Below, in pieces: positions 25,270-25,313 of a stretch of DNA of 64,000 nucleotides. The stretch lies in sequence record PP554575; one strand, written 5' to 3'. The DNA is from Escherichia phage PMBT16. Below the pieces are notes generated by a model that was not told where the DNA came from, searched no databases, and saw only the letters and a program-made list of their open reading frames with translations. The first letter of the stretch is position 1. Each line of letters starts with the position of its first letter. A program made the translations under genes and the position numbers.

Positions 25270-25313
25270 GGCAGGCACCTGGCGACGGGTGGAGACAATC
25301 ACCGGGCCTGCCT
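25270..25313 (-). promoter_or_regulatory. inverted third copy of GGCAGGCCCGGTGATTGTCTCC motif within GGCAGGC/GCCTGCC stem
   Basis: Reverse complement of 25291-25312 is identical over 22 nt to 15951-15972. Confidence 0.5.

Follow-up and report, generated by a model that had tools for sequence, protein, structure and literature searches.

The window, i.e. the whole 64,000-nt stretch of Escherichia phage PMBT16 (PP554575) that was analysed, derives from an rV5-like E. coli myophage of the genus Vequintavirus and matches 121-124 phage records at 85-100% identity. Three sites in it, named A, B and C, carry copies of a common motif (Table 1). A and B lie in tandem inside a near-invariant gene-free block of ~0.65 kb (about 15757-16284), each directly 3' of its own palindrome resembling a Fur box; C is found 9.3 kb from A, with the motif in the opposite orientation, 2-3 nt 3' of a predicted early start on the plus strand. 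All matches of the flanking ORFs are to PHROG families without known function.

Table 1. Features of the motif sites and of their surroundings; coordinates refer to the window unless a phage is named.
Feature	Position	Strand	Remarks
Three tandem iteron-like repeats of 65-74 nt	15617..15802	+	Open the gene-free block; nearly invariant in 10 Vequintavirus genomes
Fur-box-like palindrome A, TTGAATGATAATCATTCTCGTT	15917..15938	+	Covers the -35 TTGAAT (15917-15922) and the spacer
Site A	15945..15990	+	GGGCAGGCCCGGTGATTGTCTCC with GC-rich tail; predicted RNA 5' end
TATAAT box facing site A	15997..16002	-	Convergent promoter candidate; -35 poor here, good in other genera
Fur-box-like palindrome B, GATAATGATAATCGTTCTC	16053..16074	+	17/19 Fur consensus positions
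Site B	16079..16125	+	Core CCGGTGGTTGTCTCC with CCGGTG/CACCGG and GCCTGCC 3' arm; 3' half homologous to C
Promoter TTGACA-17-CAAAAT (with TG) into site B	16143..16171	-	10/12 matches; invariant in 10 genomes
Terminator hairpin with TTGCAA loop, then TGtTATACT	25224..25261 (hairpin 25224-25251)	+	Hairpin-embedded promoter, predicted start ~25268
Site C	25270..25320	+	Hairpin GGCAGGC...GCCTGCC; right half GGAGACAATCACCGGGCCTGCCTGTCATAT nearly invariant, left half diverged between genome types
Second promoter TTGACA-17-TAACAT	25338..25366	+	P168 of the rV5 annotation; A/T-rich UP-like stretch 25318-25336
First gene 3' of C	25421..25693	+	90 aa, phrog_7287, function unknown
Conserved, apparently structured block of ~100 nt	PVP-SE1 (L137) 1640-1740		Also in L134-L136, L113, L165, L221, L248-L250, L253, L254

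Analysis of the copies revealed that the repeat is real and that a chance origin is unlikely, as a preliminary description of this DNA had proposed. The 22-mer GGCAGGCCCGGTGATTGTCTCC is present exactly only at 15951-15972 (+) and 25291-25312 (-), no further match with up to three mismatches is found in the window, and dinucleotide-preserving shuffles matched it in 0 of 100 cases; a repeat finder extended the inverted repeat of A and C to 28 nt at 93% (15945-15972 / 25291-25318). The same description had counted three copies: the 22-nt identity holds for A and C, while B contains no more than the 15-nt core, in which one position differs (CCGGTGGTTGTCTCC, 16092-16106, +), and is devoid of the 5' GGCAGGC. 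The 3' half CCCGTCACCGGTGCCTGCC is common to B and C, and C, read in the orientation of the motif, is composed of the 5' half of A and the 3' half of B (CCCGTC.CC.GGTGCCTGCC). A search of the window and of the remaining 72 kb of the near-identical genome MT884008.2 returned the core at A, B and C only. A second GC-rich motif, (C)CACCTGGCGGGGCC, is repeated 3' of site B (16149-16163, 16215-16243 and 23314-23326); one copy is the spacer of a minus-strand promoter, the copy at 23314 falls within a terminator hairpin, and the motif is related to the CACCTGGCGACGGG segment of site C.

A and B were found in ~114 phage records and C in ~115, corresponding to essentially all close relatives; C is confined to Vequintavirus. 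BLAST searches revealed no match of the repeat in 5,426 complete E. coli genomes and 20,395 E. coli records, nor of the Fur-like box or the element in E. coli genomes, at a sensitivity that is blind to matches shorter than ~19 nt and hence to seed targets of 10-15 nt. Thus, at this sensitivity the motif is neither a common repeat shared with unrelated genomes nor missing from close relatives, the two possibilities that the preliminary description had raised against its own reading, and a host or common interspersed repeat of the REP/ERIC type finds no support, with zero matches in the 20,395 records. A 15-mer scan of IMG/VR matched ~120 loci, only five of which are relatives; the remainder, outside rV5-like contigs, consists of an unrelated lambdoid coding gene, hit repeatedly, and of isolated chance matches. 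Rfam at gathering thresholds gave zero matches in the window, E-value scans of 15500-16350, 25150-25450 and five sister loci returned only chance matches far below threshold, and a tRNA/tmRNA scan found none. The motif is explained by no Rfam family, tRNA or host repeat. Neither the motif nor the Fur boxes nor transcriptomes are described for this phage group in the literature covered (the rV5, CB7 and phiTE papers, a review on phage sRNAs from 2025, and searches of full texts).

A site-specific inversion system was also considered and discarded: A and C keep the same relative strands in ~15 genomes, and no recombinase is found among the flanking ORFs. Two database entries deserve mention. A 137.6-kb 'E. 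coli plasmid' in PLSDB (CP057073.1) is as long as an rV5-like phage genome and matches 236 nt of the A/B locus at 100% identity, and is therefore probably a phage filed wrongly; 17 GenBank records labelled as Campylobacter phages (MG0656xx) are ~99% identical to E. coli Vequintavirus.

The A/B locus is better conserved than the flanking genes in ten Vequintavirus genomes, and no other non-coding block of these genomes is as well conserved. The Fur box of gamma-proteobacteria has a 19-bp consensus, GATAATGATAATCATTATC; box A agrees with it at 15 of 19 positions, and box B has only two mismatches, a quality of match for which 0.04 occurrences are expected in the window. Box A is also identical at 27 of 28 positions to a Stenotrophomonas site located ~50 nt upstream of a gene for a siderophore-type periplasmic binding protein, which adjoins an AraC regulator. 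The -35 element under box A is followed by the -10 CAGAAT (15941-15946), forming a weak sigma70 promoter with 8 of the 12 consensus positions; from the placement of these two elements, the RNA is predicted to start at ~15952-15954, on the first bases of the motif. The promoter predicted for B has a degenerate -10, and a terminator scan of the window found no convincing terminator 3' of either site. On the minus strand, equivalents of the box that faces A read TTGACA-16-TATTAT (L060), TTGACC-17-GATAAT (L014) and TTGATC-16-TATTAT (PVP-SE1).

A natural variant of the locus is found in AlexBoehm (Bas56, L255 ~650-700), where the 5' part of A is fused to the 3' part of B at the 15-nt core; the corresponding deletion of 134 nt removes Fur-like box B and leaves one element built like site C, and the phage is viable. 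An ORF spanning A and B (15921-16208; gp193 of rV5, phrog_14993) was rejected because of this 134-nt deletion, of poly-A indels that are not triplets and of the lack of the ORF in other genera; it is probably not a gene. The tandem repeats that open the block contain ACTCGATC (GATC) and TTTTTCGTTT. In PVP-SE1, GAP31, CB7 and L113, analogous TCTCGATCGA repeats are found upstream of the Fur-like boxes. The repeats have the appearance of iterons and may mark a replication origin. Elsewhere in the window, a 2.6-kb gene-free stretch (~26900-29500), named as a 'non-coding' box in the rV5 paper, marks the point where plus and minus gene blocks converge, and further Fur-box-like palindromes, conserved in rV5 and V18, are present at 27386-27422 and 27504-27538.

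At site C, the perfect 7-bp stem GGCAGGC (25270-25276) / GCCTGCC (25306-25312) is indeed located in the window between a terminator and the next promoter, as first described. Hairpin C is far more stable than its shuffled versions (minus strand, z -3.5; plus strand, z -2.9); A and B fold unexceptionally (z -0.4 and -1.5). However, the stem is not a conserved feature, being specific to one genome type and broken or shifted in rV5, FV3, HMD-6, V18 and CM1, and the idea that the copies bracket the early region applies only loosely, small plus-strand ORFs continuing on both sides. C occurs in two diverged contexts, the window having TTGCAA-16-TGtTATACT upstream and the other type TTGACT-17-TGcTATTCT. 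In both of them the -35 lies in the terminator loop of the upstream gene and is followed by an extended -10, and C begins exactly 8 nt later. The other promoters of this hairpin-embedded design in the window lead straight to a ribosome binding site, which makes the C hairpin an insertion peculiar to this location. Cassettes with the -35 in a terminator loop are repeated at 17687-17737, 18318-18368, 18653-18703, 22063-22113 and 25224-25261, and at 9809-9841 in L258.

The two halves of C differ in conservation. Only the half complementary to the 5' end of A, corresponding to GGAGACAATCACCGGGCCTGCCTGTCATAT, is invariant: its 28 nt are (nearly) unchanged in 18 genomes and the adjacent intergenic sequence drifts, while the other half, including the 7-bp stem, drifts or shifts register; the divergence between genome types begins exactly at the core of C. 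Two candidate functions of the hairpin were rejected. An sRNA gene on the minus strand, suggested in the window by the succession of hairpin, linker and bidirectional terminator, does not agree with the other genome type, where the minus-strand terminator is absent and the hairpin disrupted. An intrinsic terminator does not agree with the sequences that follow the hairpin, UGUCAUAU (+) and GUGAAACA (-), and the scan calls only 25224-25251.

The preliminary description had proposed that the motif could be a structured RNA module or a protein-binding site. The covariation analysis gave no statistical support for a conserved hairpin: in 15 diverse copies RNAalifold retained a helix of only 4 bp, with a covariation term of -0.18, and in the candidate 5-bp inner stem 73.3% of the cells are paired vs 70.5% in shuffles, a value matched by 70 of 500 shuffles, its covariation score being reached by 28 of 500. 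The apparent compensatory stems CCCGG/CCGGG vs GGUGG/CCACC around the loop UGWUUGUCU were rejected by formal count; the two variable blocks of A that would build the outer stem occur in all four combinations within Vequintavirus. Since it is the primary sequence that is conserved and not a helix, an unstructured 5' seed or a protein site fits better than a structural module.

A protein site would correspond to a DNA operator, i.e. an asymmetric sequence of 12-15 bp (GGTGATTGTCTCC) bound by a phage or host protein at three promoter-proximal places, with orientation playing a minor role. Besides the type of conservation, this is consistent with the location of all three copies within ~50 bp of predicted transcription starts, on either strand, and with an A–C identity that continues beyond the predicted RNA start; in phita32, moreover, the two CCGGTG direct repeats of site B are changed together (CCAGTG...CCAGG), so that pairing is broken and the direct repeat is kept. 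Nevertheless, the position relative to the promoter is inconsistent, A lying over +1 and C at +23..+50 of one promoter and at ~-80..-55 of the next; the motif is neither palindromic nor repeated like most operators, and no linked candidate regulator is found among the flanking ORFs, which match PHROG unknowns only. An operator is regarded as an unlikely explanation.

Distant BLAST searches revealed that the organization of the A/B locus extends well beyond Vequintavirus. The module, composed of one or more Fur-like boxes, a weak sigma70 promoter TTGAAT..(C/G)nGAAT and GGCA..GGTGWTTGTCTC, is found at 80-89% identity, with diverged flanks, in Seunavirus (PVP-SE1, GAP31), Certrevirus (CB7), Mydovirus (Klebsiella and Raoultella phages) and Phapecoctavirus (ESCO13), as well as in phages of Serratia, Enterobacter and Citrobacter; in Aeromonas phages boxes and promoter are kept and the motif is missing. 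The layout of boxes and promoter is conserved in 24 phages of at least six genera. The boxes are single or, in some genera, form arrays of two to five at 29-bp spacing; such a spacing is atypical for Fur, and a phage protein could be the ligand instead.

In the genera outside Vequintavirus, a further conserved block is present on the same strand 100-200 nt downstream of the motif. It contains a UACCGG/CCGGUA helix, in which a G-C pair is swapped for A-U, and, ~200 nt from the motif, a hairpin of 11 bp that has a U/C-rich tail and in which three G-U/U-G pairs are invariant. This hairpin exceeds its reverse complement in stability by 3-7 kcal/mol, and the scan marks it as terminator-like. Rfam gave no match for the ~100-nt block, which the window lacks. 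The presence of a promoter and a terminator with no ORF between them points to an RNA gene on the motif strand in these genera, and the motif, GGCA(GG/CC)CCCGGTGATTGTCTCC, would represent the conserved 5' end of predicted small non-coding RNAs. The combination of a conserved regulator site, a conserved 5' end and a variable body is typical of bacterial sRNA genes. The minus strand of PVP-SE1 carries three sigma70-like promoters (1458-1487, 1586-1613 and 1745-1773; 0.5 expected); such opposite-strand promoters, found also at site B, make antisense or convergent transcription through the locus likely. PVP-SE1 has one copy of the motif and no inverted copy in 100 of its 146 kb, indicating that the family does not generally possess a C-type target.

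The complementarity between the loci suggests how the Vequintavirus copies could work together. Small RNAs would be produced rightwards from A and B by weak sigma70 promoters lying under Fur-box-like palindromes, and because of this overlap their expression would depend on host Fur. As the inverted motif of C lies directly 3' of a promoter, the predicted transcript starts with the exact complement of the 5' end of the A/B RNAs; it is expected to begin, from ~25268, with hairpin C, carrying GGAGACAAUCACCGGGCCUGCC. The C leader is complementary to A over 22-28 nt and to B over ~45 nt with few mismatches, and the B RNA covers nearly the whole C hairpin. On the plus strand of the whole window C is the best duplex partner for the 5' 30 nt of A (-58 vs -38 for the next best, the mean for shuffled versions of the 30 nt being -36), and no other complement of at least 11 nt is found in the genome. 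Pairing of the A/B RNAs with the C leader could start from the GAGACAAU loop of hairpin C and alter the fate of the transcript, either by opening a protective 5' hairpin or by generating a duplex that RNase III may cut; as an outcome, the genes from 25421 onwards would be coupled to iron status. Based on anatomy and conservation, the reading favoured among those considered, although with a confidence well short of even, is that C would be the antisense partner or target of paralogous, Fur-controlled A/B small RNAs.

Other observations temper this model. The GG/CC block 5' of the core was concordant between A and C in 6 of 8 genomes of a first set and in 11 of 16 of the larger one, a co-variation that is not significant (Fisher p = 0.26); the change in B of phita32 is uncompensated in C, and in the IMG contig 3300010279 single changes are compensated inconsistently. 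The homology between A and C also extends a few nt 5' of the predicted start (ATAAC/ATGAC), which points to duplication at the DNA level or gene conversion. Finally, minus-strand promoters also face A and B, so that either strand may be the functional one at these sites.

According to a different proposal, each copy is an independent cis-acting 5' leader (a stabilising hairpin, a processing site or an antitermination element), which would be read from the plus strand in the case of C but from the minus strand for A and B; the complementarity between loci would be a by-product of a cassette copied in both orientations. Indeed, every copy lies in the GGAGACAAUCACC orientation 3' of a sigma70-like promoter, namely TTGCAA-16-TATACT for C(+), TTGACA-17-CAAAAT for B(-) and the TATAAT box for A(-), with positional equivalents in other genera; hairpin C is located 2 nt from the predicted 5' end, as in known 5' stabilisers, and in our reading the variant C arms pair on the plus strand through G-U, the minus strand showing A-C mismatches. 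On the other hand, minus-strand leaders at A and B would reach no gene, and at C the arms are unconserved whereas the loop and the 3' half are invariant, a pattern that a simple stabiliser would not need; the structural evidence from the sister genera is moreover on the opposite strand, that of the Fur promoter. Independent leaders appear rather doubtful.

C could also be a relic of ectopic recombination or gene conversion among the promoter cassettes of a mosaic early region, a process described for the PeSL cassettes of T4; the motif would then have no function of its own at C. That recombination occurs at the core is demonstrated by the exact A/B fusion with its 134-nt deletion in AlexBoehm, and the composition of C from the 5' half of A and the 3' half of B, the onset of divergence between genome types exactly at its core and the abundance of hairpin-embedded promoter cassettes in the region all agree with such an origin. 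A functionless relic is nevertheless distinctly improbable in view of the (near) invariance in 18 genomes of the 28-nt half amid drifting intergenic sequence and of the retention of C in ~115 records; furthermore, the A–C interval of 9.3 kb, whose inversion is expected from frequent recombination between inverted repeats, is inverted in 0 of ~15 genomes.

Taken together, the preliminary description is partly supported; it had missed the Fur-box-like palindromes, the occurrence of the module far beyond the genus and the promoter that leads into C. The conserved Fur-box RNA locus is of greater interest than the third copy as such. It is possible, although doubtful, that many large virulent phages of enterobacteria (Vequintavirinae, Stephanstirmvirinae) carry a previously undescribed sRNA gene linked to the host Fur regulon, which in Vequintavirus would be duplicated and provided with a perfectly complementary target in the leader of an early transcript of the phage itself. 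In this case, a strictly lytic phage would read the iron status of its host and use an iron-dependent antisense switch on early genes; this would be the first iron-sensing circuit described for virulent coliphages and would add a family to the short list of lytic-phage sRNAs. Infections in iron-replete laboratory media would then be predicted to end differently from those in the gut or bloodstream, where iron is scarce. Phages of the rV5, PVP-SE1 and phAPEC8 types are widely isolated and used in cocktails for therapy and biocontrol; to our knowledge, almost nothing is known about their gene regulation. Even without the RNA model, the locus stands out for the presence of iteron-like repeats together with convergent promoters and Fur-like palindromes in arrays, and may possibly be a replication origin.

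Among known systems, the PeSL elements of T4 resemble the region of the window in that a promoter plus stem-loop is repeated between small early genes, in a mosaic arrangement with recombination sites; signs of such recombination here are the A/B fusion of AlexBoehm and the divergence boundary at C. The unit comparable to PeSL is, however, the terminator hairpin whose loop holds the -35 (25224-25261, D1 family). The motif lies downstream as an element of its own; differently from PeSL, it has only three copies, and its conservation, shared with the Fur-like boxes, reaches across subfamilies. The put sites of HK022 and the nut sites of lambda are also GC-rich structured RNA elements immediately 3' of early promoters, found in both orientations; the motif shares with them neither sequence similarity nor the two-stem architecture nor conserved helices.

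Closer to the proposed relationship of A/B and C are c4 of P1/P7 (immI), CopA/CopT and RNA I/RNA II, where a small RNA acts against a complementary leader elsewhere on the same replicon and the complementary sequences lie in hairpin loops. Differently from the c4 and CopA systems, A/B and C are 9.3 kb apart, in separate transcription units, and their complementarity extends over 22-45 nt and is not limited to two short boxes; no Rfam C4 match was found in the window, at both loci or at five sister loci.

As for A and B themselves, membership in the RyhB or other known Rfam families of Fur-controlled sRNAs was rejected, no covariance-model match being found in the window and in five sister loci. 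Their organization recalls that of RyhB (RF00057) and of PrrF1/PrrF2 of Pseudomonas: a Fur-box-like palindrome overlaps a predicted sigma70 promoter in a short putative transcription unit without ORF, and conservation is limited to the regulator site and to one short segment of the RNA. The tandem duplication of A and B resembles in particular the PrrF1/PrrF2 pair. Unlike RyhB and PrrF, to which they are related neither in sequence nor by covariance models, A and B are encoded by a virulent phage, and their sole predicted target so far lies in the phage genome itself.
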